64,000 bases of DNA from Verrucomicrobiia bacterium (GCA_050013395.1 JBEKFI010000006.1:12303-76302); one strand, 5' to 3'; positions 1,718 to 40,215 are shown, counted from the stretch's first letter. Numbers and translations: made by a program. Notes: a model not told the origin generated them from the sequence alone.

Positions 1718-3106
1718 ATGAGTGAGCAACCACAGCAAATTCCTGCCAAACGCCGCCGCTGGCCGCGACGGATTCTTGTCGTCATCCTCGTCCTCGCGGC
1801 TCTCTACGCCGCGTACCGCTACACGCTCCATCGCATGGTCGAAGCCAAGCTCGATGAAATCCGCAAGCAAGGCTACCCCGTCACGCTCACTGAGTTGGAC
1901 AAATGGTATCCGCAACCGCCGCCGGGAGAGAATGCGGCGGATGTTTATGAAAACGCCTTCTCACGGTATGCGAAATGGGACTACGAGAAACTTCGGGTCT
2001 TGCCTGTAGTGGGAGACGTACGCCGGCCAAAACGTGGCGAACCATTGCCAAGCCAACTGCGCGAAACTGCTGCAACCTATTTGGCTGAAAGCGAACCGGC
2101 CTTGAGACTGCTCCATGCCGGAGTTGCGCGGAAGCGCTGTCGGTATCCTGTCAGTTTCTCCGAGGGAGTCGAAACACCTTTGCCACACTTGAACGAAGTG
2201 CGTCAAGGGGCCCGGCTGCTCTCCCTTGAGGCCACCTTGCATGCTGCTGGGGGCGAAGCGCAGAGTGCGGCCAGTTCCATCTCTGCAGCGGTGGCTCTGG
2301 CACGTTCACTGACAGACGAACCGGGACTTGTTGACCAACTTGTTCGGGTAGCAGTGCTGCGAATAGACGCGTCATGCCTGGAAGACATCCTCAATCGGAC
2401 TGCATTCGCAGATGCTCAATTGCGGGAACTTGACGCTGCCTTAGGCGAATCGGAAACCACCAACGGTCTTGCGCGGGCGCTTGGAAGTGAAATCGTCATC
2501 CATGTCGATCTCTTCCATCGGCCGGTAAAACGCCAACTCACATCGATGCTTCCGCCGCCGCCGCCCGACGGCTTTATGAACAGCGTTGGCTTTTTGATCC
2601 CGGCTTGGTACAGGCGGCCGCAATTCTATTTTCTCAAGGCGTCAGGATTGATGGAGATCGATCTTCTGCATCATCTGAGGATTATGGAAGGCTATCTTCA
2701 TGCCGCACAGCTTCCCCTGCCTGAAAGACTTGCCGCTGCGAAGTTTGTCGATAGCGAGACGCGAAAGCTACCGAAGTTCTGTGTGATGTCAAACTGGCTA
2801 TGCGGCTATGGTAGTGGTAGCATGAGCGCATTCGTTGCGAAAGACTTGGCTGCTATCGCCAGCCTGCGATGTTGCCGTACTTCTTTTGCCTTGGAACGCC
2901 ATCGACTCGCTAGTGGCAACCCGCCTGATCGCTTTGATGAACTTGTGCCCACCTATCTCGCTGCCGTTCCCACCGATCCCTTCGATGGCCAGCTGTTGCG
3001 ATACAAGAAGTTGGAGAATGGGTACGTCGTGTATAGCGTCGCCGAGGACGGCAAGGACGATGGCGGCGACGAGAAGAAGGACATCACGTTCACGGTCGAG
3101 CGATAA
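1718..3106 (+). CDS. Hypothetical membrane-anchored protein, paralog A of a tandem pair
   Basis: Basic N-terminus followed by one TM helix (ILVVILVLAALYAAY). Shares the conserved motif EIRKQGYPVTLTELDKWYPQ and the C-terminal motif GYVVYSVAEDGKDDGGDEKKDITF with the downstream paralog. Confidence 0.5.
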   Translation: MSEQPQQIPAKRRRWPRRILVVILVLAALYAAYRYTLHRMVEAKLDEIRKQGYPVTLTELDKWYPQPPPGENAADVYENAFSRYAKWDYEKLRVLPVVGDVRRPKRGEPLPSQLRETAATYLAESEPALRLLHAGVARKRCRYPVSFSEGVETPLPHLNEVRQGARLLSLEATLHAAGGEAQSAASSISAAVALARSLTDEPGLVDQLVRVAVLRIDASCLEDILNRTAFADAQLRELDAALGESETTNGLARALGSEIVIHVDLFHRPVKRQLTSMLPPPPPDGFMNSVGFLIPAWYRRPQFYFLKASGLMEIDLLHHLRIMEGYLHAAQLPLPERLAAAKFVDSETRKLPKFCVMSNWLCGYGSGSMSAFVAKDLAAIASLRCCRTSFALERHRLASGNPPDRFDELVPTYLAAVPTDPFDGQLLRYKKLENGYVVYSVAEDGKDDGGDEKKDITFTVER

Positions 3107-3225: not shown

Positions 3226-4608
3226 ATGAGCGCGACAGCAACCAGTTCTCTTTGGAGTCGCAGACGCAAGTGGGCGCTGCGGCTGCTGATTGCCGGGCTG
3301 GTCTTGGTCGCGCTGTTTACTGTCTATCGATACACTCTGGAACGCGTGCTGGCATCGAAGCTGGAGGCGATCCGCAAGCAAGGCTACCCGGTCACGCTGG
3401 CGGAGTTGGACAAATGGTATCCGCAAGTGCTCGCGGGCGGGAACGGCGCGGACGCGTTCGGCGTGGCCTTCACCCGATTGGCAAACGGAACGGATCCGCC
3501 ATCATCGCCTCGCGTCGATCTGGCCGGCCTCACTCCGCACACCACGCCGCTGTCTGACGCCATAAAGCAGGCCATGACGAGTTTGCTGGCCAGCAACGCG
3601 GAGGCCATGGCCCTCTTGCACGAGGCTGCATCCACCAAGCGGAGCCGCTATCCGCTGAATCTGGAAAGACTTTCCCTGTTGCCCTATCCGCATCTGGTGA
3701 ACCTGCACCGCAGCGCGTATTTGCTGGAATTGGAGGCCGTCGGCTACGCTGAGAACGAGAATCCGGCGCTGGCCGCCCGCTCGGTGGATTCGCTGCTGGG
3801 TCTCGCGCGCTCCCTGGCGGCCGAACCGCTGGTGCGCTCTTATCTGGCGCGCCTTGAGTGTCAGCGCGTTGCCGTGGCCAGCTTCCAGCAAGTCCTCAAC
3901 AAGGTGACCCCGACCGATTCACAACTGGGCAGTCTGAGCGAGGCGCTGCAGCAGGCGAACAACTCGTACAGTCTGTCGCGCGCTTTCATCGGCCAACGCT
4001 GCATCGGCATTTACAGTTTCGAATTGATGGGCGGCATGGCTGACGTGTGGCGAATGCGTCTCGGGCGCAATTGGCACTGGTGGCAGCGACTGGTCATCAA
4101 ACTGACGGTGTTCTTCAGTTCGTCTGCCTGTCTCTACGACGCCTCCGGCCTGCTGCAATGGGACGAACTGCGTTACCTGCAGTTGATGGATCGGTACATC
4201 GAGGCGGCGCGAGCGGACTTTCCCGAGCGGATTGCCGTCGCGCGCACCCTGCAAAGCGCTGTTCGGCAGTTGCCGCGATCTCATGTATTCACGGGACAAT
4301 GGCTGCGGGGTATGAACGGCTCGGACCTCATTCTGAAAGACGCCTCAATGACGGCCCGCTTGCGCGCCGCGCAGATCGCTATCGCCACCGAACGGTATCG
4401 CCTCGCGCACGACCAGCCTCCTGAGACTCTGGCAATGTTGGCCCCGACCTGCCTGGAGACGGTGCCGACCGATCCATTCGATCCCGCCTCGGCGGGACTG
4501 CGGTATAAGAAGCTGACGAAGGGCTACGTTGTGTACAGCGTCGGCGAGGATGGCCAGGACGATGGAGGCGACGAGAAGAAAGACATCACGTTCGCAGTCG
4601 AACGGTGA
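3226..4608 (+). CDS. Hypothetical membrane-anchored protein, paralog B of a tandem pair
   Basis: Same architecture and the same N- and C-terminal motifs as 1718..3106; about 40% identity by eye. Confidence 0.5.
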   Translation: MSATATSSLWSRRRKWALRLLIAGLVLVALFTVYRYTLERVLASKLEAIRKQGYPVTLAELDKWYPQVLAGGNGADAFGVAFTRLANGTDPPSSPRVDLAGLTPHTTPLSDAIKQAMTSLLASNAEAMALLHEAASTKRSRYPLNLERLSLLPYPHLVNLHRSAYLLELEAVGYAENENPALAARSVDSLLGLARSLAAEPLVRSYLARLECQRVAVASFQQVLNKVTPTDSQLGSLSEALQQANNSYSLSRAFIGQRCIGIYSFELMGGMADVWRMRLGRNWHWWQRLVIKLTVFFSSSACLYDASGLLQWDELRYLQLMDRYIEAARADFPERIAVARTLQSAVRQLPRSHVFTGQWLRGMNGSDLILKDASMTARLRAAQIAIATERYRLAHDQPPETLAMLAPTCLETVPTDPFDPASAGLRYKKLTKGYVVYSVGEDGQDDGGDEKKDITFAVER

Positions 4609-7158: not shown

Positions 7159-7668
7159 TCAGACCCCGGTCTGTCCATATAGTGTATAGCTCGGGCCGCT
7201 CCCAACGGGTGACAACGGGATGGCTTGTCCGTCGAAGCTCACGGCAAAACTGGCTCCCAACCACGGGAACACTTCCAACTGAATGGACTTGGCACTCACC
7301 GGAACCAAACCGACTTGGGCCAGGGAAGCATCGAGGAGGTCTGATGAGTCGCGGGTAAATGGGTTACCCCCGCATTGGAGAAGCGCAGTATATTGGCCTT
7401 GGATGATACCACCATAGGGCCAATCCGGGCCAAAGATATCGATGCTGGCATCTCCGAGTGTGGAGTTATTCTGCAACACTTGAGTGACTTGATTGGTGCC
7501 GAGATAGCCCGTCCAGTGTGGAATCGCGTCCGTAATCGGCACGAAGCCTCCATACTGAACTGGCGCGAGGTCGGCATCTTCAAAATCGAGATTTTGAAAG
7601 GTCTGACGCAATAGGCCGGACGTGCAACTCAGGTACAACACCAAAGAATAAACTAACCCTTTCCTCAT
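7159..7668 (-). CDS. PEP-CTERM-family paralog, C-terminally truncated (lacks the PEP-CTERM anchor)
   Basis: Signal peptide MRKGLVYSLVLYLSCTSG and TFQNLDFE/LPGW/GTNQ motifs are shared with the two upstream paralogs. The ORF stops before the PEP-CTERM region. Confidence 0.45.
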   Translation of the reverse strand: MRKGLVYSLVLYLSCTSGLLRQTFQNLDFEDADLAPVQYGGFVPITDAIPHWTGYLGTNQVTQVLQNNSTLGDASIDIFGPDWPYGGIIQGQYTALLQCGGNPFTRDSSDLLDASLAQVGLVPVSAKSIQLEVFPWLGASFAVSFDGQAIPLSPVGSGPSYTLYGQTGV

Positions 7669-7709
7669 CACCGACCTCGCAAGGGACAATACTCGTTGCC
7701 CGGAAGTTT

Positions 7710-8411
7710 TCACGCGGCCCGGCGGTAGGTCAAACGCCACAAGCCAAGCGCCGCGACTCCGATCACCAGTAAACTCAAACCACTCGGTTCAGGAATCGGG
7801 TCAGGCGAGAACTCGATGGAATCCAAGGTCAATCCATGGAGTTGGCCCTCGTACGGATTCTGGGCGAACACCGTAAACGTTAACTCAGCCGCTTGCCCTG
7901 CAAATGATGAAATATCGGCTTCGTATAGACTATAGTTTTGACCGGTCACCGGAGAAGAAACCAAGTTGAGACTTGAACCTCCCAAGGATACTGCGAATGG
8001 ACCGAAGGCATTTGCAAGAAAACTCAGCGACTTTGTACCTACCGGAACCAATCCGGTTTGGGAGAGTGATGCATCAGCGGATATCGAAGAACTGCCGAGT
8101 TGAAGACCTGCTTCGAGAGAAAGAGTGTAGTTCCCTTGAATGACCGGAAACGCGCCGCTGGAACTCCAAAGGGCGATACCTGTGGAATCCAAGAAAGCGT
8201 TGTCGTACAAAATCCAGTCCAGTTGATTGGTTCCCGAAAACCCATTCCAACCGGGCAACGCCTCGCTGAGGTAAACACCGTTATGAGGATCGCCAGAAAT
8301 TGGGACCAACGTTGCCGACTCAAAGTCTAAATTTGTGAAGGTGCCCGACGCCCACAGAACGGAAGTGCAACTCACATACAACACGAAGGAGCAAACAATC
8401 CCTTTCCTCAT
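7710..8411 (-). CDS. PEP-CTERM sorting domain-containing secreted protein
   Basis: N-terminal signal peptide. C-terminus PIPEPSGLSLLVIGVAALGLWRLTYRRAA matches PEP + TM + basic tail. Confidence 0.7.
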   Translation of the reverse strand: MRKGIVCSFVLYVSCTSVLWASGTFTNLDFESATLVPISGDPHNGVYLSEALPGWNGFSGTNQLDWILYDNAFLDSTGIALWSSSGAFPVIQGNYTLSLEAGLQLGSSSISADASLSQTGLVPVGTKSLSFLANAFGPFAVSLGGSSLNLVSSPVTGQNYSLYEADISSFAGQAAELTFTVFAQNPYEGQLHGLTLDSIEFSPDPIPEPSGLSLLVIGVAALGLWRLTYRRAA

Positions 8412-8451
8412 CCATCACCTCGAACAGGACAATACTCGTTGCCCGCTGTTT

Positions 8452-9129
8452 TCACGCGGTCTTGCGATAAGTCACGCGCCAACAGCCAAGCGCCACAACT
8501 CCAATCACCAGTAAACTCAAACCACTCGGTTCAGGGATCGGCTGGGCGGCGAACGAGATCGCGTCAAGATCGCATGGGGCGCTACCGTGAGCGGTACCTA
8601 TCGTGAATCTCATTTCTTCAACAGAGCCCGCAAACGAGGAAATATCACAGCCGAAGAAGCCGGAGCCAAGTGGAAATACCGTTGTATTTTGACTACCAAC
8701 CGTAACAGTCAGGTCATTCGTATAAAACAACCTGGCTTCAAACTGGAGAGAATTCGCCCAAACGGGGATCAGACCCGTCTGGGCGATGCTTGCTGGCTGT
8801 GCTCCTTCGTTTTGAGTGCCTCCAGCTTGGAGGATTGCTGTGTAGGTCCCCTCAAGCGGCTGGTAACCGAACGAATACTGAGGCCCCATAATGCCGACGT
8901 TGGCATCGCCCAGTGTAATGGCGTTATGCCCTACTTGGGTGAGTTGTTTCGTGCCGATGTACGCTGACCAGCCGGGAAGTCCATCCGAAACGGACACAAA
9001 TTCCTCGTAATCGGGAGGCAAATTGCTGACGTTAGCCGACTCGAAATCGAGATTTTGAAAAGTCTGTGCCCGAAGGGCAGAAGTGAAGCTTACACACAAC
9101 AGCACAGCTAGAACAATTCCCTTTCTCAT
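8452..9129 (-). CDS. PEP-CTERM sorting domain-containing secreted protein
   Basis: C-terminus PIPEPSGLSLLVIGVVALGCWRVTYRKTA. Paralogous to 7710..8411. The 5' leader is conserved among the three paralogs. Confidence 0.7.
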   Translation of the reverse strand: MRKGIVLAVLLCVSFTSALRAQTFQNLDFESANVSNLPPDYEEFVSVSDGLPGWSAYIGTKQLTQVGHNAITLGDANVGIMGPQYSFGYQPLEGTYTAILQAGGTQNEGAQPASIAQTGLIPVWANSLQFEARLFYTNDLTVTVGSQNTTVFPLGSGFFGCDISSFAGSVEEMRFTIGTAHGSAPCDLDAISFAAQPIPEPSGLSLLVIGVVALGCWRVTYRKTA

Positions 9130-9381
9130 CACCGACCTCGTAGCGCACAATACTCGTTGCCCGCCAGTCTCGCAAGCCAGAACTGGAGCGGGCAGAGACT
9201 GTGAGGTTCGATCTCGCACATTAGTCGCTCCGAATGTTGTTTGTTGAAACCTTGAACCCATTGGCTTGCCCACACGGTGCATACTGGCGTCGATGAGCCG
9301 CGGCTACATCTCACCGAGCAGCCGGCCGTACCTATTTCGGGTGTGACCACTTGAATAAGTGCGCGCTGGATACGTCTATCG

Positions 9382-12117
9382 GTGCGATTACACCTCGGAG
9401 GACATGAAGCCGGACTTGGATTGACGATGGAGCGATTTCTTGCTACAGGTATTGTCAGCAAGTTGCCAAGCCGAGGAACCATTCTCGAAGGCGAGGATTT
9501 TGTGCCAGGACCCCAAATCATCGAAGCGCCAGCGCCCCTTGTTACGGCCAAAGCCGTCAACGAAGGTGGCGTAAGCAGCGTATCCCCGCAGGCTGTTGTC
9601 CCCGCCGAGCGGGTGCTGACGGACGGAAAGTTCTTCCGCATCGGGGCACAGAAGTTTTACCCGAAAGGCGTCACCTACGGCACGTTCAAGCCCGATGCGT
9701 CCGGGTGCACGTTCCCCAAGCCGGAACAGGTGGAGTGGGACTTCGAGTTGATCAAGCAACTCAATGCCAATTGCGTCCGCGTTTACCACGTGCCGCCGCG
9801 CTGGTTCTTGGATTTAGCGCAGCAGCATGGGCTGAAGGTACTGATTGATTGCGTCTGGTCCAAGCACACCTGTTTCCTCGATGACCCCGAGACGATGGAA
9901 AACGCCCGACGCGCCGTGCGCCAAGCGGCGGAAACGGTGGCGGGCCATCCGGCGGTGTTCGCGCTGGTGCTGGCCAACGAGATTCCGCCGGACATTGCGC
10001 GCTGGTACGGCGCGCGCCGGATCGAAAGCTTCATCGACGACCTGGCGGCCATCGTGAAACGAATCGATCCGCAACGGCTGGTCACCTTCGTCAATTTCCC
10101 GCCCACGGAGTTCCTCCGCCCCAGCAGTCTGGACTTTGTCAGCTTTAACGTTTACCTGCACGAGCAGCGGCCGTTCTCAAACTATCTGGATCGACTCCAA
10201 AGCATCGCGGGCGACAAACCGCTGGTGCTCGCGGAGTTCGGCATCGACTCGATCCGCGAGAGCGAAGAACGCAAGGCGCAGATTCTGAGCAGCCACATCG
10301 AGATCGCCTTCCGCGCCGGGCTGGCCGGTACGTTCATTTTTGCCTTCACCGACGATTGGCACACGGGTGGTCACCAAATTGAAAACTGGTTCTTCGGGTT
10401 GACCGACCGCGAACGGCAGCCACGCCGTTCGTATCACGCGATTGCCGAGCAGTACAAGCGCGCCCCGCACTTTCCGTTGCCGGATTACCCAAAGGTAAGC
10501 GTCGTGGTGGCGAGCTACAACGGCGGGCGGACTCTGCCCGCGTGCCTGAATTCGCTGACGCATCTGAATTATCCCAACTACGAGATCATCCTCGTCGATG
10601 ACGGCTCGACCGACGACACGGCGAAGATTGCCTCGCATTACCCTTCAGTGCGAACGATTCATCAGCCCAACCTTGGCTTGAGTGCCGCCCGCAACACAGG
10701 CATTGCGGCGGCTGAGGGCGACTTGATCGCTTTTACCGACAGCGATTGTCGCGCTGACGAAGACTGGCTTTACTATCTCGTTGGCGACCTGCTGAAGACA
10801 GACGCCGCCGCCATTGGCGGTCACAACTTTCCTCCGGCGGAGGACGACTGGATTGCGGGCGCCGTGGCGGTTTCGCCCGGCGGCCCAGCGCACGTCATGC
10901 TCGATGACCGCAACGCGGAGCACATCCCCGGCTGCAACATGATGTTCTGGAAGTGGTCGCTCGAGGGGATCGAAGGATTCGATCCGCAATACCGCGCGGC
11001 GGGCGACGACGTGGACGTTTGCTGGCGGCTGCTGCAACGCGGATACAAGATCACCTTTTCGCACGCCGGTTTCGTCTGGCATTACCGCCGCAACACCTTC
11101 GCCGCCTACTTGAAACAGCAGCGCGGCTACGGCGTGGCCGAGGCGCTGCTGCGCTACAAACATCCTGAATACTTCAACAGCCTCGGCGGCATGCGCTGGC
11201 ACGGTCGGATTTACAATCCGACGCGGGCGGCGGGCGCGTTCGGGCGGTTCGTGATTTATCACGGCATCTTCGGCAGCGGCCTGTTTCAAACACTCTACAC
11301 TCCCGAACCAGCCGGATTGCTGCCGATCCTGACCAGCCTGGAATGGCACGTGTTGTTTACGTTGGGCGGGGTTTTGCTGGCGATGATGTGGCCGGCGCTC
11401 TGGCCACTGCCGGCACTAACGCTCCTGGCGAGCCTGAGTGCGGCGGCGCTGGCTGCCGCGCGCGTCGATCTGCCTCCCTGGCAACGGCGCATCTGGTCGC
11501 GGCCGCTCGTCACCGGATTGTATTTGCTTCAGCCGATCGTGCGCGGTTGGCCAAGGTACGCGCATCGATTGCGCCGATCGGAGACGCCGACGACGGCGCA
11601 CGCGACGGTGAGAGAGTTGGCCGAGCAGTACGACGGCGTGTCGAGCATTCACACGGTCAATTACTGGAACGAGCAGGGGATCGAACGCGTTGCTTTTTTG
11701 CAGAAGCTTTTGGAGGTTCTGGAGCGCGACCAGTGGCAGGCCAGCGCCGATAGCGGTTGGGACGAGCATGACGTGACGATTCACGGCGACCGCTTCACCA
11801 AGGCTGTCGTCAACACCGTTTGCGAAAACCATGGCGGCGACAAGCGATTGCTGCGGGCGCGATTGTGCGCCCGCTGGACACTGCTGGCGAAAGTGCTGCT
11901 GTGGACTGACGTCGCGCTGGTGGCGCTCTTCCTCGTGGTGGCACAGCATGCCTTGTGGGCGCTATCGGCGTGGTTGCTGGTGGTGCTGGTGGCGGCGTAC
12001 CTGCATTTGCGCTCGCATCGCACGTTGCGGTTGGCGATTGCCCTCTTGGATGTGACGGCGCAGCAGATGGGACTCACCAAGCTCACGGCTCCGAAAAAGT
12101 TTGAAAAGCCCGCGTAG
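9382..12117 (+). CDS. Fusion protein: clan GH-A (TIM-barrel) glycoside hydrolase domain + family 2 glycosyltransferase + C-terminal multi-TM region
   Basis: GH-A catalytic motifs LANEIP and LAEFG. GT2 motifs VVVASYNGG, ILVDDGSTDDT, FTDSDC. Several hydrophobic helices at the C-terminus. Start codon uncertain (possibly 9427). Confidence 0.65.
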   Translation: MRLHLGGHEAGLGLTMERFLATGIVSKLPSRGTILEGEDFVPGPQIIEAPAPLVTAKAVNEGGVSSVSPQAVVPAERVLTDGKFFRIGAQKFYPKGVTYGTFKPDASGCTFPKPEQVEWDFELIKQLNANCVRVYHVPPRWFLDLAQQHGLKVLIDCVWSKHTCFLDDPETMENARRAVRQAAETVAGHPAVFALVLANEIPPDIARWYGARRIESFIDDLAAIVKRIDPQRLVTFVNFPPTEFLRPSSLDFVSFNVYLHEQRPFSNYLDRLQSIAGDKPLVLAEFGIDSIRESEERKAQILSSHIEIAFRAGLAGTFIFAFTDDWHTGGHQIENWFFGLTDRERQPRRSYHAIAEQYKRAPHFPLPDYPKVSVVVASYNGGRTLPACLNSLTHLNYPNYEIILVDDGSTDDTAKIASHYPSVRTIHQPNLGLSAARNTGIAAAEGDLIAFTDSDCRADEDWLYYLVGDLLKTDAAAIGGHNFPPAEDDWIAGAVAVSPGGPAHVMLDDRNAEHIPGCNMMFWKWSLEGIEGFDPQYRAAGDDVDVCWRLLQRGYKITFSHAGFVWHYRRNTFAAYLKQQRGYGVAEALLRYKHPEYFNSLGGMRWHGRIYNPTRAAGAFGRFVIYHGIFGSGLFQTLYTPEPAGLLPILTSLEWHVLFTLGGVLLAMMWPALWPLPALTLLASLSAAALAAARVDLPPWQRRIWSRPLVTGLYLLQPIVRGWPRYAHRLRRSETPTTAHATVRELAEQYDGVSSIHTVNYWNEQGIERVAFLQKLLEVLERDQWQASADSGWDEHDVTIHGDRFTKAVVNTVCENHGGDKRLLRARLCARWTLLAKVLLWTDVALVALFLVVAQHALWALSAWLLVVLVAAYLHLRSHRTLRLAIALLDVTAQQMGLTKLTAPKKFEKPA

Positions 12118-13711
12118 CACCTGGTTTTGGAACGCATTGCTTCTTGCGCTGCTTGTCTGGCAGGCGGCCGTGCTGTCGCTGCACATCAACCGCCCGTGGA
12201 CGGGCCATCACGACTGGAATGGCTTCCTGTGGTCTCAGGCGGCGCACAATCACCTGCTCGCGGGACTGCGCAGCACGCTGGGCGCATCTGCTTGGAACCA
12301 TTTCGGGCCGCCACCGATCCCGCCGGAGGCGTACTACGTTCATCATCCGCCCCTGCTGTCCTTGATTTTGGCGGCGCTTTTTGCCGTGCTCGGCGAACAC
12401 GAGTGGGTCGCCCGCCTCCTGCCGGTCAGTTTCTCAGTCGTCGGCGCGATGTTGCTGTGGCTGCTCGTGCGGGAAGCCGCCGGACCGCGCGCGGCCACGC
12501 TCGCGGTTGCTGTGTTTGCCGCCTGCCCGACGGAGTTGTACTTCGGCCAGATGGTCAATTTCGAGCCGCTGATGGCGGTGTGGATGTTGGGCGCGTTGTG
12601 GTGCCTCCGCCGTTGGCAACTGACCGCCAGCAGCGCGTACCTTGCAGCGGCGCTTGGCCTCGTAGCGCTCGGGCTGTGGACGGAATGGCCGATGTACATC
12701 CTGGCTGTGGTCCTCGCCGCAATGCTGCTGGCCCGACGACCGCCCGATTGGCGCGCGTCGGGCATGCTCACCGCAATCGCACTGGCTTCAGCCATGCTGT
12801 TTCTGTTGCACATTCGGCTGGTGTGCCCCGACGCTTGGCGGGATGCGCTCGGTCAGTTTGCGTTTCGGCTCAGCGCAGACCCCGGGCTGACGAGAGAAAG
12901 CGGGGCGACGTTCACGGCAGCGGAGTGGTTCGTCCGACAGGGCCGGTTTCTGACGCGCGGGATTTTGTGGCCGCTGTGGATTCTGGCGATTGCGGGCGCG
13001 GCGATGTGCTGGCGAAAACGGCTGACCTCGGACGGCCTTCGGTGGCTTGGCTGGGCTGCCCTGAACTTGTTCAGCATGCAGACAATTTATCTGGTTGTGT
13101 GGAGGAACGTCTCGTACACGCATGAGTACGCGAGCTTCTACTTTGTTCTGCCCGTGGCGATCATGGGCGGCGTTGCGTTGGATGGTTTGCTGGGCTGTGT
13201 GCAACAGCGGTGGAGTTCGAAACGTACGCACGTTGTGGCGCATTGCTTGCTGGTCGCTGCTGTTGTCGGGCTGTGCGGATGGGGTTATGCGCAGTCGCGC
13301 GTGTATCACCACCGTTATTACCTCCTCGAATGGGGCGAACCTGAGCCCGAAGACCTGATCCCGTCTCTTGGCCGAACGATTGCGCGGGCGTGTCCCGACG
13401 ACGCAATGATCATCTGCAATTTCCCGTGGATCTCGCCGCAACTGCAGTATTACGCCCGCAAAGAGATGGCCTTTCAGAAGACCGCGTACGCCGACTGGCA
13501 GCCTTATCTGGCGACCAACCGCGCCATTGGCGGTGTCATCTGGCAGGAAGCGCAAGGAGCGGCGGAATTACTCGCGGCGCTGCCGCCAGGCCACCGGGAA
13601 ATCGTCCGCTTTGGCCCCTATAGTTTCTGTCTGTGGCGGCCTGAATCTGCAGGCACGGGCAGATCGCAGGCGCGCAGCAGGGCAGCCAGCGCCTTGTCCG
13701 AATCGAAGTAA
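12101..13711 (+). CDS. GT-C fold glycosyltransferase, family 39 / ArnT-like membrane protein
   Basis: At least 10 predicted TM helices with the typical ArnT/PMT-like N-terminal topology. Sits next to the GT2 gene. Confidence 0.55.
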   Translation: MKSPRSTWFWNALLLALLVWQAAVLSLHINRPWTGHHDWNGFLWSQAAHNHLLAGLRSTLGASAWNHFGPPPIPPEAYYVHHPPLLSLILAALFAVLGEHEWVARLLPVSFSVVGAMLLWLLVREAAGPRAATLAVAVFAACPTELYFGQMVNFEPLMAVWMLGALWCLRRWQLTASSAYLAAALGLVALGLWTEWPMYILAVVLAAMLLARRPPDWRASGMLTAIALASAMLFLLHIRLVCPDAWRDALGQFAFRLSADPGLTRESGATFTAAEWFVRQGRFLTRGILWPLWILAIAGAAMCWRKRLTSDGLRWLGWAALNLFSMQTIYLVVWRNVSYTHEYASFYFVLPVAIMGGVALDGLLGCVQQRWSSKRTHVVAHCLLVAAVVGLCGWGYAQSRVYHHRYYLLEWGEPEPEDLIPSLGRTIARACPDDAMIICNFPWISPQLQYYARKEMAFQKTAYADWQPYLATNRAIGGVIWQEAQGAAELLAALPPGHREIVRFGPYSFCLWRPESAGTGRSQARSRAASALSESK

Positions 13712-14814
13712 TCCACTACGACCGCGCGTGCGGCGCGACAATGTTTTGCGTAGTCGGAGTTGATCTTCTCCACCGCCTCGACCACGTCGTCCTCGGCGCT
13801 GAAGGCAAACAGGCCTTCGCCGCACGGGATGATTTCGCTGAAGCCTGTGTCTTGAACGATGGCGGGTTTGCCTGACGCGAGATAAACCGCCGTGCGGTCG
13901 CTGAACCAGCCGCTGCGCGCCTTGACTTCCAGGTTCACCGCCACGCTGAATTCGCCGCGCGATTGCGCGATGTACTCGAGGTACGTCCACGGCGTGGCCG
14001 TTACCTTGAGCGGATTGGCGATGCGCCAACCGGCGGCGGCGATTTGCTCGCGCGGAGCGTTCGGCCCGGCCAGGGCGATTTCAAACATTGGCCCGACCCG
14101 CTTGGGCAAATCGAAGATCCGTATGAACTCGACGTCCTTCTGCCCGTACTCCTCGCCATTGTAAATGACCGGTTTGCGCGCGCTCCAGCTCATGATTGTC
14201 GTGAAGAACTTCGCCTCCGGTGTAAACCGCGGCGTCACCAACTCCAGCGCCATCGGCCAGCGGGTTGGACGCCAGTTCAGGCCGTGCGTCGGGATCGGGC
14301 AATCCACCTTGCCGATGCGCTCGCCGATGGTGAAATGAAATTGAAAATCGTACGGCGAGGCGTAGCCGTCGCAGGACGGCGCAGGCGTGGCAGGCATGCC
14401 GAACTGCGTGAAGCCGGGATCGGCATCCCAAAAGATGCGCTTCTTGCAGTCGCGAAACTGATCCAGCCAGGTCACGGCCGCTACGCTGAGCAGGAAATCG
14501 GCGTCGCAGCAAACGCGTCCCAATTCCTCGCGCGACATGCCGTGGTAATTGCCGTCCGCGTCCACGTAGCACCATCGGTTCACGCCGATCTTTTCGAACG
14601 CGCGGCGCAGCTCGGCGATGCCGTAGGTCGGATCATTGGTCGAGCTGTTGGTGCGCGGGTCATAACACGAGGACGGCCATCCGTACTGCTCGGCGAACAC
14701 CACCTCGTAGCCAAGCCTCTGCAACCCGACGAGAAAATGGAGCTGGGAAAGCACATGGCCGCCCAGCGGGTAGCGCACCAGATAACCGGCGACAATGGCC
14801 ACCGGCTTGCTCAT
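13618..14814 (-). CDS. CgeB-like glycosyltransferase family protein (paralog 1)
   Basis: The C-terminal segment FSDRTAVYLASGKPAIVQDTG...GEGLFAF resembles the CgeB / Glyco_trans_1_2 domain. Tandem paralog of 14811..16016. Confidence 0.45.
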   Translation of the reverse strand: MSKPVAIVAGYLVRYPLGGHVLSQLHFLVGLQRLGYEVVFAEQYGWPSSCYDPRTNSSTNDPTYGIAELRRAFEKIGVNRWCYVDADGNYHGMSREELGRVCCDADFLLSVAAVTWLDQFRDCKKRIFWDADPGFTQFGMPATPAPSCDGYASPYDFQFHFTIGERIGKVDCPIPTHGLNWRPTRWPMALELVTPRFTPEAKFFTTIMSWSARKPVIYNGEEYGQKDVEFIRIFDLPKRVGPMFEIALAGPNAPREQIAAAGWRIANPLKVTATPWTYLEYIAQSRGEFSVAVNLEVKARSGWFSDRTAVYLASGKPAIVQDTGFSEIIPCGEGLFAFSAEDDVVEAVEKINSDYAKHCRAARAVVVDYFDSDKALAALLRACDLPVPADSGRHRQKL

Positions 14815-16016
14815 ACGCCGACGCGCTCCAGCATCGCCCCCAACACCTTGCGCGCGTCAAACATCTGCTCGGCTATTCCGCGGGCTGCGGCACTGTGCCT
14901 CGCGTAATCGGCATTGATGTGATCGATGCCCGCGATCGCTTCTTCCGCCGTGCTGAACGCAAAAAGCCCGTTGCCGGTCGGATAAATCTTGCTCCAGTCT
15001 GTGTCCTGCAACACGCAGGGTCGCCCGAGCGCCAGATAACACGCGCTGCGGCAACTGAACCAGCCGCTGCGCGATTTGACGTAGCCTTCCTTGGCCACGC
15101 TCCATTCGCCCTTGGAGTTGCCCAAGTAATCGCGGTAGGTCCACGGATCAGGGAGATGCTCGCTCGGCTCGATGATCCGCCAGCCTTTTTGTTGGAGGAG
15201 TTCTGTCGGCCGCTTCATGCCCGGCCCCATGCCCATCGCGATCTCAAACTTCTGCGTCGTCTTCTGAGGCAGGTCAATAAACTTCATGAACTCGACATCT
15301 TTTTGTCCCCAGGTCTCTCCGCCGTACTCGCAGCCCTTGTAAGAAACCCAGTTCATCACCGTGGTGAATACATCGCGGACATCTTCCGTGGGAGCGGCGT
15401 CCCCGCCGCGATTCTGGCCCGGTCGCGGCGGGGACGCCGCTCCCACAAACGGCCACCAATCCAGCACGATCGGCTGGCGCGTCGGAATCCATTTCAATCC
15501 TGCCATCGGCACACGGCAATCAGGCGCTCCGATGTTCTCGGCGAACGTGAAATGAAAATCGTGGGCGTGGATGCGATCGATCACGCCTTGGTTGCCCGAC
15601 ACCAGCGCCACCTGCGTGAACATCGGATCGGAATCGATAAAAACCTTTCTGGGGATTGCGACGTACTCCGGCCGCAACCAGCCGCAGCCGGACACGTTCA
15701 GGTAAACGTCGGCGCTGGCGCAGAATTTCCTGGCCTCGGCCTCGCTAACGCCATGGTAACTGCCGTCGGGCGCGTTGCGGTAAATCCAGCGGTCGCCGAG
15801 GCTGAGCCGGTTCATCACGTCGCCGAGATACTTGACGTTGTAGCTGCAATCGTCGCTGACGGTGTTCTTGATCGGGTCGTACGGCCACGTCTCCGTGTCT
15901 TCGAGATACCACACCTCATGCCCGAGCAGGCGAAATCCCTCGACATACTGCAGGTAATCCCACGCCACCCCGCCGAACGCATACTGCCCGACCAGCCCTG
16001 TCACAATGATCCGCAT
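14811..16016 (-). CDS. CgeB-like glycosyltransferase family protein (paralog 2), carrying an in-frame palindromic-element insertion
   Basis: Same family as 13618..14814. Contains the extra segment GAASPPRPGQNRGGDAAPT, encoded by the palindromic element at 15388..15446, which is absent from the paralog. Confidence 0.45.
   Translation of the reverse strand: MRIIVTGLVGQYAFGGVAWDYLQYVEGFRLLGHEVWYLEDTETWPYDPIKNTVSDDCSYNVKYLGDVMNRLSLGDRWIYRNAPDGSYHGVSEAEARKFCASADVYLNVSGCGWLRPEYVAIPRKVFIDSDPMFTQVALVSGNQGVIDRIHAHDFHFTFAENIGAPDCRVPMAGLKWIPTRQPIVLDWWPFVGAASPPRPGQNRGGDAAPTEDVRDVFTTVMNWVSYKGCEYGGETWGQKDVEFMKFIDLPQKTTQKFEIAMGMGPGMKRPTELLQQKGWRIIEPSEHLPDPWTYRDYLGNSKGEWSVAKEGYVKSRSGWFSCRSACYLALGRPCVLQDTDWSKIYPTGNGLFAFSTAEEAIAGIDHINADYARHSAAARGIAEQMFDARKVLGAMLERVGV
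15388..15446. repeat. RPE-like palindromic element (23-bp inverted termini GTGGGAGCGGCGTCCCCGCCGCG) inserted in-frame in a CDS
   Basis: Near-perfect inverted repeat gtgggagcggcgtccccgccgcg ... cgcggcggggacgccgctcccac. The same termini occur at 48106..48175. Confidence 0.7.
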
Positions 16017-16190
16017 GCCGCCCAGTTTATACCGTGCCGCCGTCCAGCCGACAACAAGTCAGTGCAGCCGCCGCTAAAGCGATCCGTGCACGGTCAGGAA
16101 ACCGGCGCACAACGGGTTGACACGCAACTATGCGGAGTCTAATCTGCCGGTCGACTTTTTCATAATATTGCTGTTAGGTTTTGATGAATG

Positions 16191-16497
16191 TATGAAATGT
16201 CCTTATTGTGAGCATGAGCTTCCGCTGACTTGGCGTCGATATTGGAAGTCGCCTTTTGGTCGCCACCTTTGCCCTAGTTGCAGTCGGCGCTCTAAGTTCG
16301 AGGTGAGCGTGTTGTATTGTCTGCTCCTTCTGCTCGGTGCGGCGGTGGGAGGAGTTCCGTTGTCACTGTTGTTCCACACGTGGAGGGGAGGCCATTGGTG
16401 GATTATGGGTTGGGTTGTCGGAGGTCTGCTCACGTGCATCCCGTTCGACAAATACTTGGAGACGAGACATAGAACACTCGTGAAGATGGAGACCTAA
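16191..16497 (+). CDS. Hypothetical zinc-ribbon membrane protein
   Basis: CPYC...CPSC zinc-ribbon motif followed by two hydrophobic helices. Lies in a lower-GC region. Confidence 0.3.
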
Positions 16498-16547
16498 CCT
16501 GACTTATTCACGATGCGCTTGAAAGCTCGACAGTCTGTCACAGCTCG

Positions 16548-16632
16548 AACCCTCACCCTGACCCTCTCCCTTGGAAAGGGAGAGGGGAAATCTCCTCGCC
16601 CCGCATGCGGGGAGAGGACCAAGGTGAGGGGC
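16548..16632. repeat. ~90-bp nested palindromic intergenic element (copy 1 of 4)
   Basis: CCCTCACCCTGACCCTCTCCC ... GGGAGAGG..GGTGAGGG with internal hairpins. Related copies at 37092, 61711 and 63197. Confidence 0.75.
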
Positions 16633-17021
16633 AGTTCGTTGCGCAAAACTTCATGAATGAGTCAGGCTAGTGCTTGACGTCCGATCCCTCATAGGAGGCC
16701 GACGTCTCATCACAAAGACATTCACGCTGTGAGCGCCATGAATATCGTGATTACTGAAATGCCAAGTGCCGGCAAAGCAACCCAGAAACACGCACGAACC
16801 TTCCCGCGCCGATAACTTGAAATCAGGACGAAAGCTGCCAATGACACCCCCACGGTCGGTAACGCAAATACGTTATCCGGCAAGTGCTGTGTCGTGCCTC
16901 CAGCACCGGCTGCAACCATCGCTCCAGTATTTGTCCAATCCCAAAAAGCGCCTATGACTGCAATGACACAGCCCAGAATGCCAGTACCATTTCGGTCTTA
17001 TTCACGGTGGTGCGAGTCGGC

Positions 17022-19172: not shown

Positions 19173-19779
19173 GGTAGTTCTCCTTGAGGTTTGCCCAAAT
19201 GATGTCGGCCTGTTCCACGAGCACGCGGAACGAGCCGTCGTTCAAAATCACGAAATCTGCTTTGTCCATCTTCTTCTGCATCGGCCACTGCGCTCGGATC
19301 CGTGCGCGCGCCTGCGTTGCGGTCAATCCTTTTGCCGCCAGCCGCGCCAGTTGTGTCTGCTCGCTGCAGCCGACGGCCACGACGCAATCAAATTGATTTT
19401 CCACTCCGACTTCATAAAGCAACGGGATCGAAACCAGCGCGACCGCGACACGCCCCTCGCGCTCCAGCTTTTCCAGGGCTTCCATCCACATCTGGCGAAC
19501 GACTGGATGAACGATTTGATTCAACACCAGGCGCTTCTGTTCATCTCCAAAAACGATTTCGCCCAGCGCGGCCCGGTTGATCGATCCGTCTGCGTTCAAA
19601 ATCCCCTTGCCGAACACCTTGACAATCTCGTCGTAGGTCGTCGTTCCCTGCGCCAGCGTCTGATGAGCCAGTTTGTCGGTCTCAATCACCGCCGTGTCGG
19701 CCTGCCGCCAGCGAGCTGCAACGGCCGATTTTCCAGCGGCGATTCCGCCGGTAAGGCCAAGCTTGAATAGCCATTTCAT
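19153..19779 (-). CDS. coaE: Dephospho-CoA kinase
   Basis: P-loop [11 protein letters not shown] and CoaE-like overall sequence. Overlaps the rho start. Confidence 0.85.
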
Positions 19780-20011
19780 GCTGTCATAACGCCGATTACC
19801 GTACCAAGCGCATTGGGTGGTAAATATCCTGAACAGTGCTTTGGGATGATGACCTAGGAGACCGTCAGATCAACTGTGTACGACCGAAAAATACCTGTCG
19901 AATCCACGTGCGTCAAGTGCCGAATTCAGTTTATTTCAGGTATTGAACCGACTTTGGCGGGAGGACCTTTCGCGCCGCTGCCGAGCCTCCTCCGCCAAGT
20001 GCCTCCGCCGA

Positions 20012-20267
20012 AGCTACGGCACTCACGCGAAGGCGGAAGCAGCATTGGCTGCGACGGCCGGAAGCTATGGCGCGTAGGTGGTCAGGCCCGCGACTCCTCG
20101 CAGCAGTCGCGCGCAGAAGCGCGCTCCTACAGCTCGCACCGCAGCTTCTCAAGGCTGGTTGCCCAAACGTCTTCGGTCGTTGTAGCCGCGCTTCTACGAA
20201 ACGCGGGGCATCGGCTTGCCGAAGAGATTCGGCGCTTCATTCACCCCGAAAGCCTTCGGGGCAGGGA
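20012..20267. repeat. ~250-bp structured non-coding repeat (copy 1) ending in hairpin CCCCGAA-AGCC-TTCGGGG
   Basis: About 90% identical to 30848..31090. No conserved reading frame. Contains internal complementary segments. Confidence 0.75.
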
Positions 20268-20346
20268 CGGACTGCGGATCGAGACGAATGCCGCAATCCA
20301 GCGGCATGTTGATGACGTCCGCGCAGTCGGCCATCTTTATCCTGAC

Positions 20347-20559
20347 TCAGTCCTTTTTGGGGCTCACGACCAGCAACACGATTCCGCCGACCAGCGCGAG
20401 CGCCCCGACGACTGGCGGGATAAAGTGGCTGTGGGTGGTCTCGATGTGCACTCCGAGGAAATCGACGGGCTTTCCCGGAGTCTTGAAAGTGATGCCCGAG
20501 TAAGCGAGCACCACGATGCCGAGAGCGATCAAGATGACGGCAATGGTTTTTGTATTCAT
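20347..20559 (-). CDS. Small two-TM membrane protein (DUF3185-like)
   Basis: 70 aa with two hydrophobic helices. A GGAG RBS lies upstream. Confidence 0.45.
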   Translation of the reverse strand: MNTKTIAVILIALGIVVLAYSGITFKTPGKPVDFLGVHIETTHSHFIPPVVGALALVGGIVLLVVSPKKD

Positions 20560-20588
20560 TTCGAATCTCCAGTTTCCTTGTATCAGTT

Positions 20589-20747
20589 AACCGCTTCTTA
20601 CGACGCTTTTCGGCCCTGAATGATGTTGACCAGAATCATGATCACGGCAATCACCAGCAGAACGTGAATGACTCCGCCCATCGTGTAACTGCTCACCAGT
20701 CCCAGCAGCCACAGAACGATTAGTACGACAGCTATTGTCCACAACAT
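20589..20747 (-). CDS. lmo0937-family small membrane protein
   Basis: The 52-aa sequence MLWTIAVVLIVLWLLGLVSSYTMGGVIHVLLVIAVIMILVNIIQGRKAS matches the lmo0937 family signature. RBS aaggagaat. Confidence 0.6.
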
Positions 20748-20833
20748 ATGATTCTCCTTTTGGTTTGCTTTGAATTCACTACCGACTAGTGCGCCCCATA
20801 CAACTCCCGCACCAGCCAGTAATGAATTGATGT

Positions 20834-21412
20834 CTACTTGTTCTTGGACACGGCCGCCTTTGGCTGTTTCAGCACCACCTTGGCGCCATGCGCGGTCTTG
20901 GTCACCGCTTTGCGAACCGTCTCCACTGCGGTCGAACCGACCTTGCCAGCCGCTTTCAACGCCCCATCGGCAGCCGCCGACGCGGCGTCCTCGGCGCTGA
21001 CTCCCAATTCCTTGGCGCCTGCGATCGCCCCTTCAACAAGACCGGTGGCAGCGGCCTCAAGGTCGCCGCCGACCGCGGCCGTGTCTCGGATCGTGACATG
21101 GGCGGTGTGGCTGATGGTATCCATGACCTCCGTGCCTGCCTCCTTGGTGCCGCGCAGTACCCCGACCATGATCCCTTTCGCGGCATGCCCCAGGTCGGCG
21201 CCAACCTGCACTGCGCCGCGGATCGCGCCGCTCGCAACTGCAGCAATGGCATCGGTTACGGACGTGCCCACCTTGCCGGTATCTTTGATCGTTGTGGCGA
21301 GCGTTTTGGTAATGGTATCCACCGTCGCTTGGACGATGTCACCCGTCCCTTTGATCGCGGCAACAATCCCATCTTTAACCGTCTCAATCATCCCTGAGTG
21401 TTCTGTCTTCAT
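20834..21412 (-). CDS. Repetitive Ala/Thr/Gly-rich hypothetical protein
   Basis: Internal imperfect repeats (TxxDTxxxV / GAIxGAxxxG). No recognisable catalytic motifs. Confidence 0.35.
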   Translation of the reverse strand: MKTEHSGMIETVKDGIVAAIKGTGDIVQATVDTITKTLATTIKDTGKVGTSVTDAIAAVASGAIRGAVQVGADLGHAAKGIMVGVLRGTKEAGTEVMDTISHTAHVTIRDTAAVGGDLEAAATGLVEGAIAGAKELGVSAEDAASAAADGALKAAGKVGSTAVETVRKAVTKTAHGAKVVLKQPKAAVSKNK

Positions 21413-21493
21413 GTTTGCTTTCCTTTCGGATTACCAAGGCTCGTTGCCGGCTGGTGCACTCCTGCACCAGCCAACAGCGATCCTGTGGTTGTG

Positions 21494-22261
21494 TTACTCT
21501 TTCTTGGGCTCTTCGATGGTCATGTTGTTGACCACGCTCTTCACACCGTGAACGTCCTCGACGAGCTTGGTAACCAGATCCTTCTCGGCGGCGTTCCGGG
21601 CTTTGCCACCCAGCGTGACCACGCCATCGTTCGTCTCCACCTTGGTCCGGAGGACGCCGGTCGAGCGATGCGACAGCAACGTCATCTTCACTTGGGCGGT
21701 GATGGAAGCGTCATCAATCTTTTCGCCCATGGTTTCGCCCGGCTTTTCCGGGTTTGCTGCCACCGTCATCTCGTTCTTGACGCCTTTGACGCCTTCGACG
21801 TCTTTGGCGAATTCGGTGGTGAGTTCCTTTTGGGCCTGGCTCGCGGCTTCGCCTTTCAGCGTCACGATGCCATCTTTCACGTAAACCTCCGTTTTGTGGG
21901 CATTCACGTTGCGATGGAACACCAGCGCGGTTTTCACTTTCATGCTGACCCACGTATCCGAGCTCTCGGCGGGGCCTTTGACTTCGATACGATTGTCCAC
22001 GGTCTTGACCCCGGGCAACGCCTCGGCGACGTCTTGGGCCATCGGTTTGTGGGTTTCGTTATACACGTCGCCCGACAAGGTGACGGCTCCATCCTTGGAG
22101 CTGATCTTGATGTGTTCGTCCTTCAGATACGTCTTATAGACGTAGGTCTTTTTGAACGAGGTTTCGATGCGGTCATCCGTCTCGGACGCGCGCAACGGCG
22201 TGCTGCTGCCCACCAGGGCGGCCACAGCCACTACAAGCGCCAATGGATACATTACTTTCAT
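21494..22261 (-). CDS. BON-domain (OsmY-like) periplasmic protein with three BON domains
   Basis: Signal peptide. Three repeats of the ~60-aa BON pattern (V.V.DG.VTL.G.....A...A...V.GVK.V.N). Confidence 0.75.
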   Translation of the reverse strand: MKVMYPLALVVAVAALVGSSTPLRASETDDRIETSFKKTYVYKTYLKDEHIKISSKDGAVTLSGDVYNETHKPMAQDVAEALPGVKTVDNRIEVKGPAESSDTWVSMKVKTALVFHRNVNAHKTEVYVKDGIVTLKGEAASQAQKELTTEFAKDVEGVKGVKNEMTVAANPEKPGETMGEKIDDASITAQVKMTLLSHRSTGVLRTKVETNDGVVTLGGKARNAAEKDLVTKLVEDVHGVKSVVNNMTIEEPKKE

Positions 22262-22377
22262 TCGACTTCCTTCTTTCTGTTGTTACGTCTTTGGGTTGGA
22301 AGCAGGCTACGCGATGGGCTGGCCCTTCGCTATGGGGTAAAACCCTACCTTGGATGTTCAGGGGTCCATGGCCATGC

Positions 22378-30759: not shown

Positions 30760-30847
30760 AGTTCAGCCATCGGATCGAGATCGAACCACCCAGCACGGTG
30801 CGGCAGCGGACGCGAACAGGCCGCGCCGCCGAGCTCGCGCAGGCGGG

Positions 30848-31090
30848 AGCTACGGCACTCACTCGAAGGCGGAAGCAGCATTGGCTGCGACGGCCGGAAG
30901 CTATGGCGCGCAGGTGGTCAGGCCGCGACTCCTCGCAGCAATCGCGCGCCGAAGCGCGCTCCGCAGCTTCTCAAGGCCGGTTGCCCAAACGTCTTCGGTC
31001 GTTGTAGCCGCGCTTCTACGAAGCGCGGGGCGTCGGCTTGCCGAAGAGATTCGGCGGCTTCATTCACCCCGAAAGCCTTCGGGGCAGGGA
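30848..31090. repeat. ~250-bp structured non-coding repeat (copy 2)
   Basis: About 90% identical to 20012..20267, including the terminal hairpin CCCCGAAAGCCTTCGGGG. Confidence 0.75.
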
Positions 31091-37091: not shown

Positions 37092-37172
37092 CCCCTCACC
37101 TTGATCCTCTCCCCCGAGCGGGGAGAGGAATTCCCCTCTCCCTTTTCGCAAGGGAGAGGGTCCGTGTGAGGG
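37092..37172. repeat. ~90-bp nested palindromic intergenic element (copy 2 of 4)
   Basis: CCCCTCACCTTGATCCTCTCCCCCGAGCGGGGAGAGG...CCCTCTCCCTTTTCGCAAGGGAGAGGGTCCGTGTGAGGG. Confidence 0.75.
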
Positions 37173-40163: not shown

Positions 40164-40215
40164 ACGCCTGAACGCTCAACGCTCAACGCTTTCACCCCGA
40201 AAGCCTTCGGGGCAA

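Follow-up and report, generated by a model that had tools for sequence, protein, structure and literature searches.

A predicted cytoplasm-facing fusion of a clan GH-A glycosidase domain and a GT2 glycosyltransferase domain in Verrucomicrobiota

Architecture of the fusion protein

The DNA studied here, called the window throughout, is a stretch of 64,000 nucleotides from a Verrucomicrobiia bacterium (GCA_050013395.1, JBEKFI010000006.1:12303-76302), and its region from 9382 to 16016 carries a fusion gene, a GT-C membrane glycosyltransferase gene and two genes for putative glycosyltransferases that are paralogs of each other (paralogs A and B). The fusion gene, the main subject of this report, encodes a clan GH-A glycoside hydrolase (GH) domain, a GT2 glycosyltransferase domain and a C-terminal membrane module. 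It was delimited by Pfam, homolog search, AlphaFold2 (AF2) and tblastn. The open reading frame (ORF) was translated without interruption from 9382 to 12117 on the + strand, and the GTG at 9382 gives a product of 911 amino acids. The start is, however, probably the ATG at 9427, which gives 896 amino acids, because the homologs are 866-908 amino acids long and the tblastn similarity of the relative L083 opened at residue 1 of this shorter form; all residue numbers below follow it.

The AF2 model of the protein, made with a 60-sequence alignment, reached a pLDDT of 81.9 and a pTM of 0.73. The layout has five parts, namely a clan GH-A TIM barrel, a GT2 domain of the GT-A fold, a transmembrane (TM) hairpin, an alpha/beta domain and a second TM hairpin. 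Residues 1-59 were disordered and non-conserved; they precede the (beta/alpha)8 barrel (residues 63-345; 9613-10461, + strand), a short linker (residues 346-356) and the GT-A domain (residues 357-580; 10495-11166, +), whose closing helix bears QQRGYG. A low-confidence linker (residues 600-628) leads into the first hairpin (residues 632-678; 11320-11460, +), which was recognised by hydropathy and modelled as helices 638-654 and 660-678. Next come a conserved amphipathic helix (residues 691-715; 11497-11571, +) with the motif LLQPIVRGWPRY and an invariant R706, the small alpha/beta domain seen in the AF2 secondary structure (residues 722-817; 11590-11877, +), and the second hairpin (residues 819-880; 11881-12066, +), found by both hydropathy and AF2.

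The GH domain was matched by Pfam Glyco_hydro_2_C (PF02836) over residues 83-292 (5e-13, 49.2 bits against a gathering cut-off of 21), and the AF2 model of its barrel gave structural matches within clan GH-A. The acid/base glutamate lies in NEI (9976-9984) and the nucleophile in AEFG (10231-10242), corresponding to E185 and E270; in the alignment with LaGH157, the first motif falls on its NE and the glutamate of the second on E224, which is mutated in the PDB structure 9g4n. Sequence matches in the PDB were to the GH2 enzyme 6ncw (4.8e-12), to LaGH157 (1.8e-7; phmmer, 18-19% identity) and to the GH158 enzyme 6pal (4e-5), and a Pfam GH72 match (4e-4) stayed under its cut-off. No match to GH17 (PF00332) was obtained with Pfam in the fusion. 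Identity to LaGH157 (9fz9/9g4n) and to the GH2 catalytic domain of 6ncw was just 18-22%. These enzymes are secreted or catabolic and bear other accessory domains, whereas the GH2 N-terminal sugar-binding and Ig-like beta-sandwich domains were not found in the fusion, where 0-74 disordered, non-conserved residues stand before the barrel. A literature search by PDB code found nothing for 9FZ9, 9G5G and 9G4N, and GH158 papers only for 6PAL. Judged by its sequence, the domain belongs to clan GH-A with its retaining machinery intact, and no single CAZy family fits it.

Over residues 370-580, Pfam reported Glycos_transf_2 (PF00535; 1e-32) and Glyco_tranf_2_3 (PF13641; 1e-18). The motifs found were DDGSTDD (10597-10617), DSD as the DxD motif (10738-10746), GCNM, GDDVD and QQRGYG, the last on the helix after the GT-A core. 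The model gave a GT-A fold at residues 357-580, with DSD at least 98% conserved. The best NCBIfam profile for the whole GT-A domain was that of MftF (TIGR03965; 9e-46, residues 366-600), with a score of 157 bits against an equivalog cut-off of 280, and the other full-length matches, EpsD (8e-29) and PgaC (6e-25), were also under their cut-offs. The ArnC profile covered residues 370-458 only. Likewise, the PDB sequence matches 5mlz (1.7e-5) and ArnC 9hwj/8vxh (about 1e-4), of the DPMS/ArnC type, were restricted to the nucleotide-binding half. The fusion thus resembles MftF-like, COG1216-type GT2 enzymes over the whole GT-A domain, but MftF itself has no GH domain, and mycofactocin genes were not present.

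The membrane part consists of four TM helices in two hairpins, which lie about 140 residues apart with a soluble segment between them. For the C-terminal 270 residues neither a Pfam match nor a sequence relative in the PDB was found. By hydropathy, no 19-residue segment of TM or signal-peptide grade occurred before residue ~630 in the window protein or in 60 homologs; the maximal Kyte-Doolittle value over 19 residues (KD19) in these homologs was at most 0.86 in the N-terminal extensions (0-74 residues) and at most 1.66 within the GH and GT2 domains. GT2 domains require cytoplasmic nucleotide sugars. Because the linker to the cytoplasmic GT2 domain is only about 12 residues long and no TM segment or signal peptide occurs before or between the two domains, the GH domain is placed in the cytoplasm from its sequence. 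The alpha/beta domain and the C-terminus would be cytoplasmic as well, since each TM pair forms a hairpin. The best reading is therefore an enzyme anchored in the inner membrane with every soluble domain at the cytoplasmic face.

An earlier reading of the region made from the sequence alone (the sequence-only reading) had proposed a single polypeptide with a GH-A domain, a GT2 domain and C-terminal TM helices on the basis of short motifs. The motifs NEI, AEFG, DDGSTDD and DSD were all located, both domains were recognised by Pfam (Glyco_hydro_2_C and Glycos_transf_2), and the TM helices were seen by hydropathy and AF2. Moreover, both active sites appeared intact in the predicted structure and in the conservation of the family described below. 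The same reading had allowed that the long ORF might be an artefact in which a missed frameshift merged two genes. Nothing was found in favour of this, and its probability is close to nil: more than 100 independent homologs from many assemblies have both Pfam domains within one protein, tblastn alignments ran continuously over both domains at 80 genome loci, and AF2 gave a continuous chain with a confident linker. With the same single-polypeptide architecture also present in 63 distant representatives, the artefact was ruled out.

Spread and conservation of the family

A search of 5.8 billion proteins returned more than 100 full-length homologs at 53-90% identity, all with both Pfam domains. 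Their source labels read only "glycosyltransferase" or "O-antigen biosynthesis protein", and the named sources were Verrucomicrobiota. Among GTDB species representatives, at least 550 loci with relatives of the fusion were confirmed, nearly all in Verrucomicrobiota metagenome-assembled genomes, in addition to Limisphaera sp. VF-2 (L081). When the GH domain was searched against 1.84 billion cluster representatives, 448 clusters (50% identity) were obtained at E <= 1e-30, most of them with proteins of 815-940 amino acids in which the GH domain is N-terminal. At 32-51% identity, 63 full-length representatives of these clusters still had the fusion architecture, and the stand-alone GH versions in this list were mostly short fragments on short contigs. 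In plasmids, no fusion was found by tblastn; the matches there were to the GT2 domain alone (for example MftF and archaeal GT2 enzymes). A literature search on GH and GT2 fusions, in Verrucomicrobia or in general, retrieved no description of this family, the only relevant papers being those on NdvB and Cgs. The fusion thus belongs to a large, uncharacterised family of Verrucomicrobiota.

In the 60 close homologs (52-90% identity), the GH glutamates (NE, EFG) and the GT2 motifs (DDG, DxD, GCNM, GDDVD, QQxGY) were invariant. In the 63 distant representatives the GH glutamates were still 100% conserved and the GT2 motifs at least 95%, so that E185 and E270 are identical in 124 family sequences; over the close and distant homologs together, conservation of D392, DxD, DDxD and QQxGY is 95% or more. 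This pattern in the alignments indicates that both active sites are under purifying selection.

A few distant relatives (P0273, P0279, P0299 and P0275) bear extra N- or C-terminal modules, including an NHL beta-propeller (about 1260 amino acids), a full ABC exporter (1421 amino acids) and a second GT2 domain (1062 amino acids). In P0299, the GH domain, the GT2 domain and the first hairpin are followed by ABC_membrane and ABC_tran domains, and the amphipathic helix (691-715) still aligns.

Genes beside the fusion

The GT-C gene (12101-13711, + strand) was assigned to the GT39/ArnT-like membrane glycosyltransferases by Pfam and hydropathy. PMT_2 (PF13231) was matched at 4e-12, with 46.9 bits against a cut-off of 26.1; the protein has 11 hydrophobic segments, a soluble C-terminal part of about 140 amino acids and, after TM1, the sequence HHDWNG, an Asp-bearing first periplasmic loop. 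PMT_2, about 11 TM segments and the Asp-containing first periplasmic loop are common to it and to the ArnT/PMT enzymes (GT83/GT39), and its nearest annotated relatives, which are more distant homologs, are Chthoniobacterales proteins named "GT39/ArnT-like". The gene starts at a TTG and overlaps the fusion stop by 17 nt, as the sequence-only reading had seen, and its end overlaps the 3' end of paralog A by 94 nt. Among the 120 GT-C homologs listed, about 20 (P0413, P0415, P0417 and others; some 900 amino acids) carry in addition a PIG-L/LmbE N-acetylglucosaminyl deacetylase domain (PF02585), and in one the extra domain is a polysaccharide deacetylase (PF01522). Because of the PIG-L/LmbE fusions, a lipid-linked aminosugar donor is hinted at, and these sequences suggest that GT-C family proteins use a de-N-acetylated aminosugar bound to a carrier lipid; they also hint at an origin independent of the fusion.

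Paralog A (13618-14814, - strand; 398 amino acids) and paralog B (14811-16016, -; 401 amino acids) converge on the fusion and the GT-C gene. They are 38% identical (E 4e-91), and AF2 gave for paralog A two facing Rossmann-like domains, that is a GT-B fold, with a pLDDT of 94.3 and a pTM of 0.93. The window proteins had no match to PF13524 at E <= 0.1; 19 of 42 family members did match it, the best at E 3.7e-6. Identity of the window paralogs to GT4-type GT-B enzymes (BshA, PimA, DGD2) and to CgeB-type PF13524 proteins was 9-13%. At the position of the second glutamate of the GT4 EX7E motif they read ...SDRTAVYLASGKP..., without a glutamate, when inspected by eye. From sequence and model, both are considered soluble putative glycosyltransferases of the GT-B (GT4-like) type with weak likeness to CgeB. 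The tandem arrangement and the putative glycosyltransferase nature proposed in the earlier note were thus retained, but the CgeB label is weak, as the window proteins reach no Pfam threshold. Several of the top matches act on membrane lipids, which may offer a lead.

Paralog B also contains a perfect palindrome (15388-15446) with 24-nt arms and an 11-nt loop, which inserts 18 amino acids in frame into a loop of the protein, and the in-frame insertion described before was found here exactly. The palindrome is one copy of a repeated element. In the 90% relative (L083, 13968-15203), the same loop has a different insert of 29 amino acids, and no insert was found in L085, L003 or paralog A; the alignments thus mark this site as a hot spot. 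A second copy, in which the 24-nt arms recur with one mismatch around a loop of 22 nt, lies in dnaE (48106-48175), and this essential gene is split exactly there into ORFs 45628-48366 (+) and 48104-49189 (+), the downstream one in the +1 frame. The upstream ORF carries PHP, DNA_pol3_alpha and finger regions and the downstream ORF the remaining HHH_6 and OB fold. Reading through the dnaE palindrome in frame 1 yields VGAASPPRP, a peptide also present in paralog B. The break could be an assembly indel in the hairpin, a pseudogene or recoding over the 24-bp stem. The 20-mers at 17661 and 41476, which resemble half-sites, were examined and are not palindromic elements.

Upstream of the fusion, three tandem paralogous secreted proteins (7159-9282, - strand) share the N-terminal sequence ...FQNLDFE. 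Two of the three end in PIPEPSGLSLLVIG...W[RC][LV]TYR[RK] and have the layout of a PEP-CTERM anchor (PEP motif, TM helix, basic tail), the Pfam score being 20.1 bits against a cut-off of 20.7; the third (7159-7740) has no anchor and looks truncated. The PEP-CTERM genes reported near the cluster are therefore real, with a C-terminal anchor in two of the three upstream paralogs. They occur as a single copy in L083, and none was found in L085 or at the other loci; these proteins are probably neighbours outside the system.

The neighbours of the fusion were compared over 85 loci and were not conserved. At L083 and L084 (90% identity) the order is an EF-G-like gene, one PEP-CTERM paralog, the fusion, paralog A and paralog B, without GT-C, and L085 (85%) has the EF-G-like gene, the fusion and both paralogs, with neither GT-C nor a PEP-CTERM paralog. 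The pair of paralogs adjoins the fusion in about nine of the 15 loci at 65% identity or above; in the 50-58% clade, which is the majority, the fusion stands alone and the pair is beside none. GT-C was beside the fusion in three contigs only, the window, L086 (fusion 73%, GT-C 88%) and L087 (GT-C 97%), each time between the fusion and paralog A, and it was not beside the fusion at 80 genome loci or in four individually examined relatives, L083 and L085 included. The commonest neighbours were thyA (24 loci), an OEP outer-membrane efflux gene (13) and folA (11), and ABC_membrane-type genes occurred within 6 kb of the fusion at seven loci. Because the neighbours vary while the fusion stands alone in most loci, these gene orders are read to mean that the cluster gathered recently, and in this lineage only, around a gene that is conserved and otherwise stands alone.

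The window ORFs scanned outside the cluster include EF-G-like, Rho, CoaE, MlaE, UbiD and dnaE genes. Among the scanned ORFs there was no family match to Wza, Wzc, Wzx, Wzy or exosortase, and none of the canonical partners of an exopolysaccharide (EPS) locus, ABC-2 and an outer-membrane porin included, was present. In L085, a Wza-like gene (Poly_export) and a Wzc-like gene (Wzz and AAA_31) lie at 19729-22616, about 7 kb downstream of the fusion; neither the window nor L083 showed such a pair, and its proximity is probably coincidental.

Some further features of the window were recorded. The 1-kb gap upstream of paralog B (16017-17021) has no convincing gene, its 126-aa ORF (16117-16497) being without a Pfam match, and contains a GGGAGAGGGTCAGGGTGAGGGTT-type repeat of which further copies lie at 61690-61804, 63177-63289 and 37111-37174. 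A repeat of about 260 nt is present at 20007-20267 and 30843-31090 (95-100% identity, 10.8 kb apart), and its short hairpin-like core, CACCCCGAAAGCCTTCGGGGCA, was found again at 40185-40218. Two adjacent proteins of about 460 amino acids (1718-3106 and 3226-4608, both +) had no Pfam match; their 3' ends and the downstream sequence (D10, D20) are repeated, so that the genes look like a tandem duplication. An Rfam scan of 6-20 kb gave no match.

A model for the fusion and its alternatives

GT2 enzymes invert alpha-linked nucleotide-diphosphate sugars into beta-linkages, and clan GH-A comprises retaining beta-glycosidases and transglycosylases. The two domains are chemically matched, because enzymes of the first kind make beta-linkages and those of the second act on them. 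In the model that we prefer, with a probability of roughly one half, the fusion would be a beta-glycan synthase that faces the cytoplasm, processes its product in cis and is complete in itself, and would not be part of an EPS operon. At the membrane surface, the inverting GT2 domain would use a nucleotide sugar to make a beta-linked oligosaccharide or polysaccharide, and the retaining GH-A domain would process this product in cis, by hydrolysis or transglycosylation, in order to release it from a primer, control its length, branch it or cyclise it. Export would be left to a separate system, possibly an ABC exporter. The GT-B paralogs would be accessory glycosyltransferases gained in the close clade, and GT-C would have entered between the fusion and paralog A in a narrow sub-lineage, and its translation there is probably coupled to that of the fusion. 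The proposal of processing in cis rests on an obligate fusion with two invariant active sites in the same compartment and on the lack of any conserved partner gene; since the fusion stands alone in most genomes, it needs no dedicated neighbour.

Two known systems offer the closest comparison. Cgs makes cyclic beta-1,2-glucan with all of its soluble domains in the cytoplasm and a six-TM anchor (PMC10901819). It joins a glycosyltransferase, a transglycosylating cyclase and a GH94 phosphorylase in one inner-membrane protein, and its product is synthesised in the cytoplasm and exported separately, in agreement with the topology and logic proposed for the fusion. However, Cgs is far larger and is composed of a GT84 domain, an (alpha/alpha)6 cyclase, GH94 and six TM helices, against GT2, a GH-A barrel, four TM helices and 896 amino acids in the fusion, and no sequence relationship between the two was detected. 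The NdvB-type 'Orphan' cyclic beta-1,3-glucan synthases of Pseudomonads and Bradyrhizobium combine GH17 with GT2, and it has been suggested that their GH domain cuts the GT2 product and transglycosylates it; the protein has a signal peptide, a periplasmic GH17 domain (PF00332), three TM helices, a BcsA-like GT2 domain with Q(Q/R)xRW and five further TM helices (PMC10237404). An N-terminal clan GH-A barrel, GT2, TM helices and a similar overall size are shared with the fusion. On the other hand, the fusion has a GH2/GH157-like barrel, QQxGY, and two hairpins around an alpha/beta domain; lacking GH17, a signal peptide and inter-domain TM helices, it was excluded from the NdvB group. Our best reading by analogy is that the family may work like Cgs and NdvB and is a member of neither.

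Several observations weigh against the in-cis synthase model. The structural neighbours of the GH domain are of mixed specificity (GH157/GH158 beta-1,3-glucanases, GH2 uronidases, GH5 mannanases and GH72), and therefore the sugar cannot be read off from them; the likeness to GH157, GH158 and GH72 points weakly to a beta-1,3-glucan. In addition, QQxGY (at least 95% conserved) lies 36 residues past DDxD, where processive synthases have the acceptor motif Q(Q/R)xRW on an interface helix, and the R and W are replaced. Because of this replacement, and because the best profile is MftF, the product could be short or be built on a non-sugar acceptor. An ABC-mediated export is weakly hinted at, in the Rosetta-stone manner, by P0299 and by the ABC_membrane genes near seven loci, but the ABC-fused relative is one metagenomic sequence. 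The action of the GH domain on the GT2 product, the sugar and its linkage, and the route of export are all points that we infer.

The sequence-only reading had taken the region for an EPS-type cluster in which GT2 and its TM helices polymerise and translocate the glycan, the GH domain trims it as BcsZ does beside cellulose synthase, and the GT-C, CgeB-like and PEP-CTERM genes serve the same EPS or protein-glycosylation system. The spacing of QQxGY after DDxD is BcsA-like, and the matches to PF13632 and PF13641 extend into the first hairpin; export-type genes do lie about 7 kb off in L085, and PEP-CTERM genes adjoin in the window and L083. But BcsZ acts in the periplasm and the GH domain of the fusion is on the cytoplasmic side, so that BcsZ-like periplasmic trimming was ruled out by topology, on the hydropathy of the window protein and 60 homologs. 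Processive GT2 synthases (BcsA, HAS, PgaC, NodC and the GT2 part of NdvB) form a channel of six to eight TM helices, whereas the fusion has only four in two hairpins, within a membrane module without a Pfam or PDB relative; the analogy with BcsA and BcsZ fails on both counts. The notion of an EPS-type cluster found no support either, as the paralogs are limited to the close clade, GT-C to three contigs and the PEP-CTERM genes to the nearest relative, and no export family was met among the scanned ORFs. We regard this explanation as quite improbable.

An explanation to be judged unlikely, though it accounts for GT-C, is that the GT2 domain makes a polyprenyl-phosphate sugar in the manner of GtrB, ArnC or DPMS, which is then flipped and used by GT-C on a periplasmic protein, lipid A or glycan, with the GH domain as regulator or recycler. 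A GT-A domain with an amphipathic helix and C-terminal TM hairpins is a layout recalling DPMS and GtrB, and 5mlz and 9hwj/8vxh were indeed among the PDB matches, in the nucleotide-binding half only. The overlap of the GT-C start with the fusion stop, the same order in L086 and L087, and the PIG-L/LmbE fusions, which fit a lipid-linked aminosugar donor, are in line with it. It is opposed by the absence of GT-C from beside the fusion at the 80 loci and in the four relatives, and by the fit of the full GT-A domain, acceptor half included, to the sugar-extending MftF, EpsD and PgaC, when ArnC covers 370-458 only. Polyprenyl-phosphate glycosyltransferases are not known to have the DDxD and QQxGY motifs that are invariant in the fusion family, and no role is left for the invariant GH active site. 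A chance fusion, in which a cytoplasmic beta-glycosidase for imported oligosaccharides was joined to an uncoupled glycosyltransferase, would agree with the catabolic nature of the nearest GH relatives (GH2, GH157, GH158, GH5). It is very improbable, however, as the two domains stay together, their order and linker unchanged, over identities of 90% to 32% and across hundreds of clusters, stand-alone GH versions are mostly fragments on short contigs, and the context is non-catabolic, no transporters or PUL-like genes having been found.

The in-cis synthase model can be extended to a more specific and distinctly speculative form. The family would then be a phylum-wide single-protein machine by which a beta-glucan-type oligosaccharide is made and processed (for example cyclised or branched) at the cytoplasmic face by a GH-A transglycosylase and a QQxGY GT2 domain, with the two-hairpin and alpha/beta module helping to attach a primer, to regulate the enzyme or to pass the product to an exporter, and it would represent an independent invention of the strategy of Cgs and NdvB. 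The fusion of a glycan-processing domain to a synthase is known already; what is new is the combination of a cytoplasmic GH2/GH157-like barrel with a QQxGY GT2 domain and a two-hairpin module, and its phylum-wide breadth.

Verrucomicrobiota are abundant in soil, freshwater and the gut, and hardly anything is known of their envelope glycans. The fusion, with its two conserved carbohydrate active sites, is kept in hundreds of species and mostly has housekeeping genes as neighbours, which makes it a strong candidate for the synthesis of a lineage-typical glycan. This could be, for example, an osmoprotectant, an oligosaccharide of the envelope or the head group of a glycolipid. If the fusion proves to trim or decorate in the usual way, the practical gain would be that a large family known so far only as "glycosyltransferase" is annotated better. 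If the model is true, it would be a third independent solution to polymerising and processing in one polypeptide, beside Cgs and NdvB, and it would define a GH-A subfamily that acts inside the cell on a nascent product. As Limisphaera sp. VF-2 is a cultured carrier of the gene, the question is testable.

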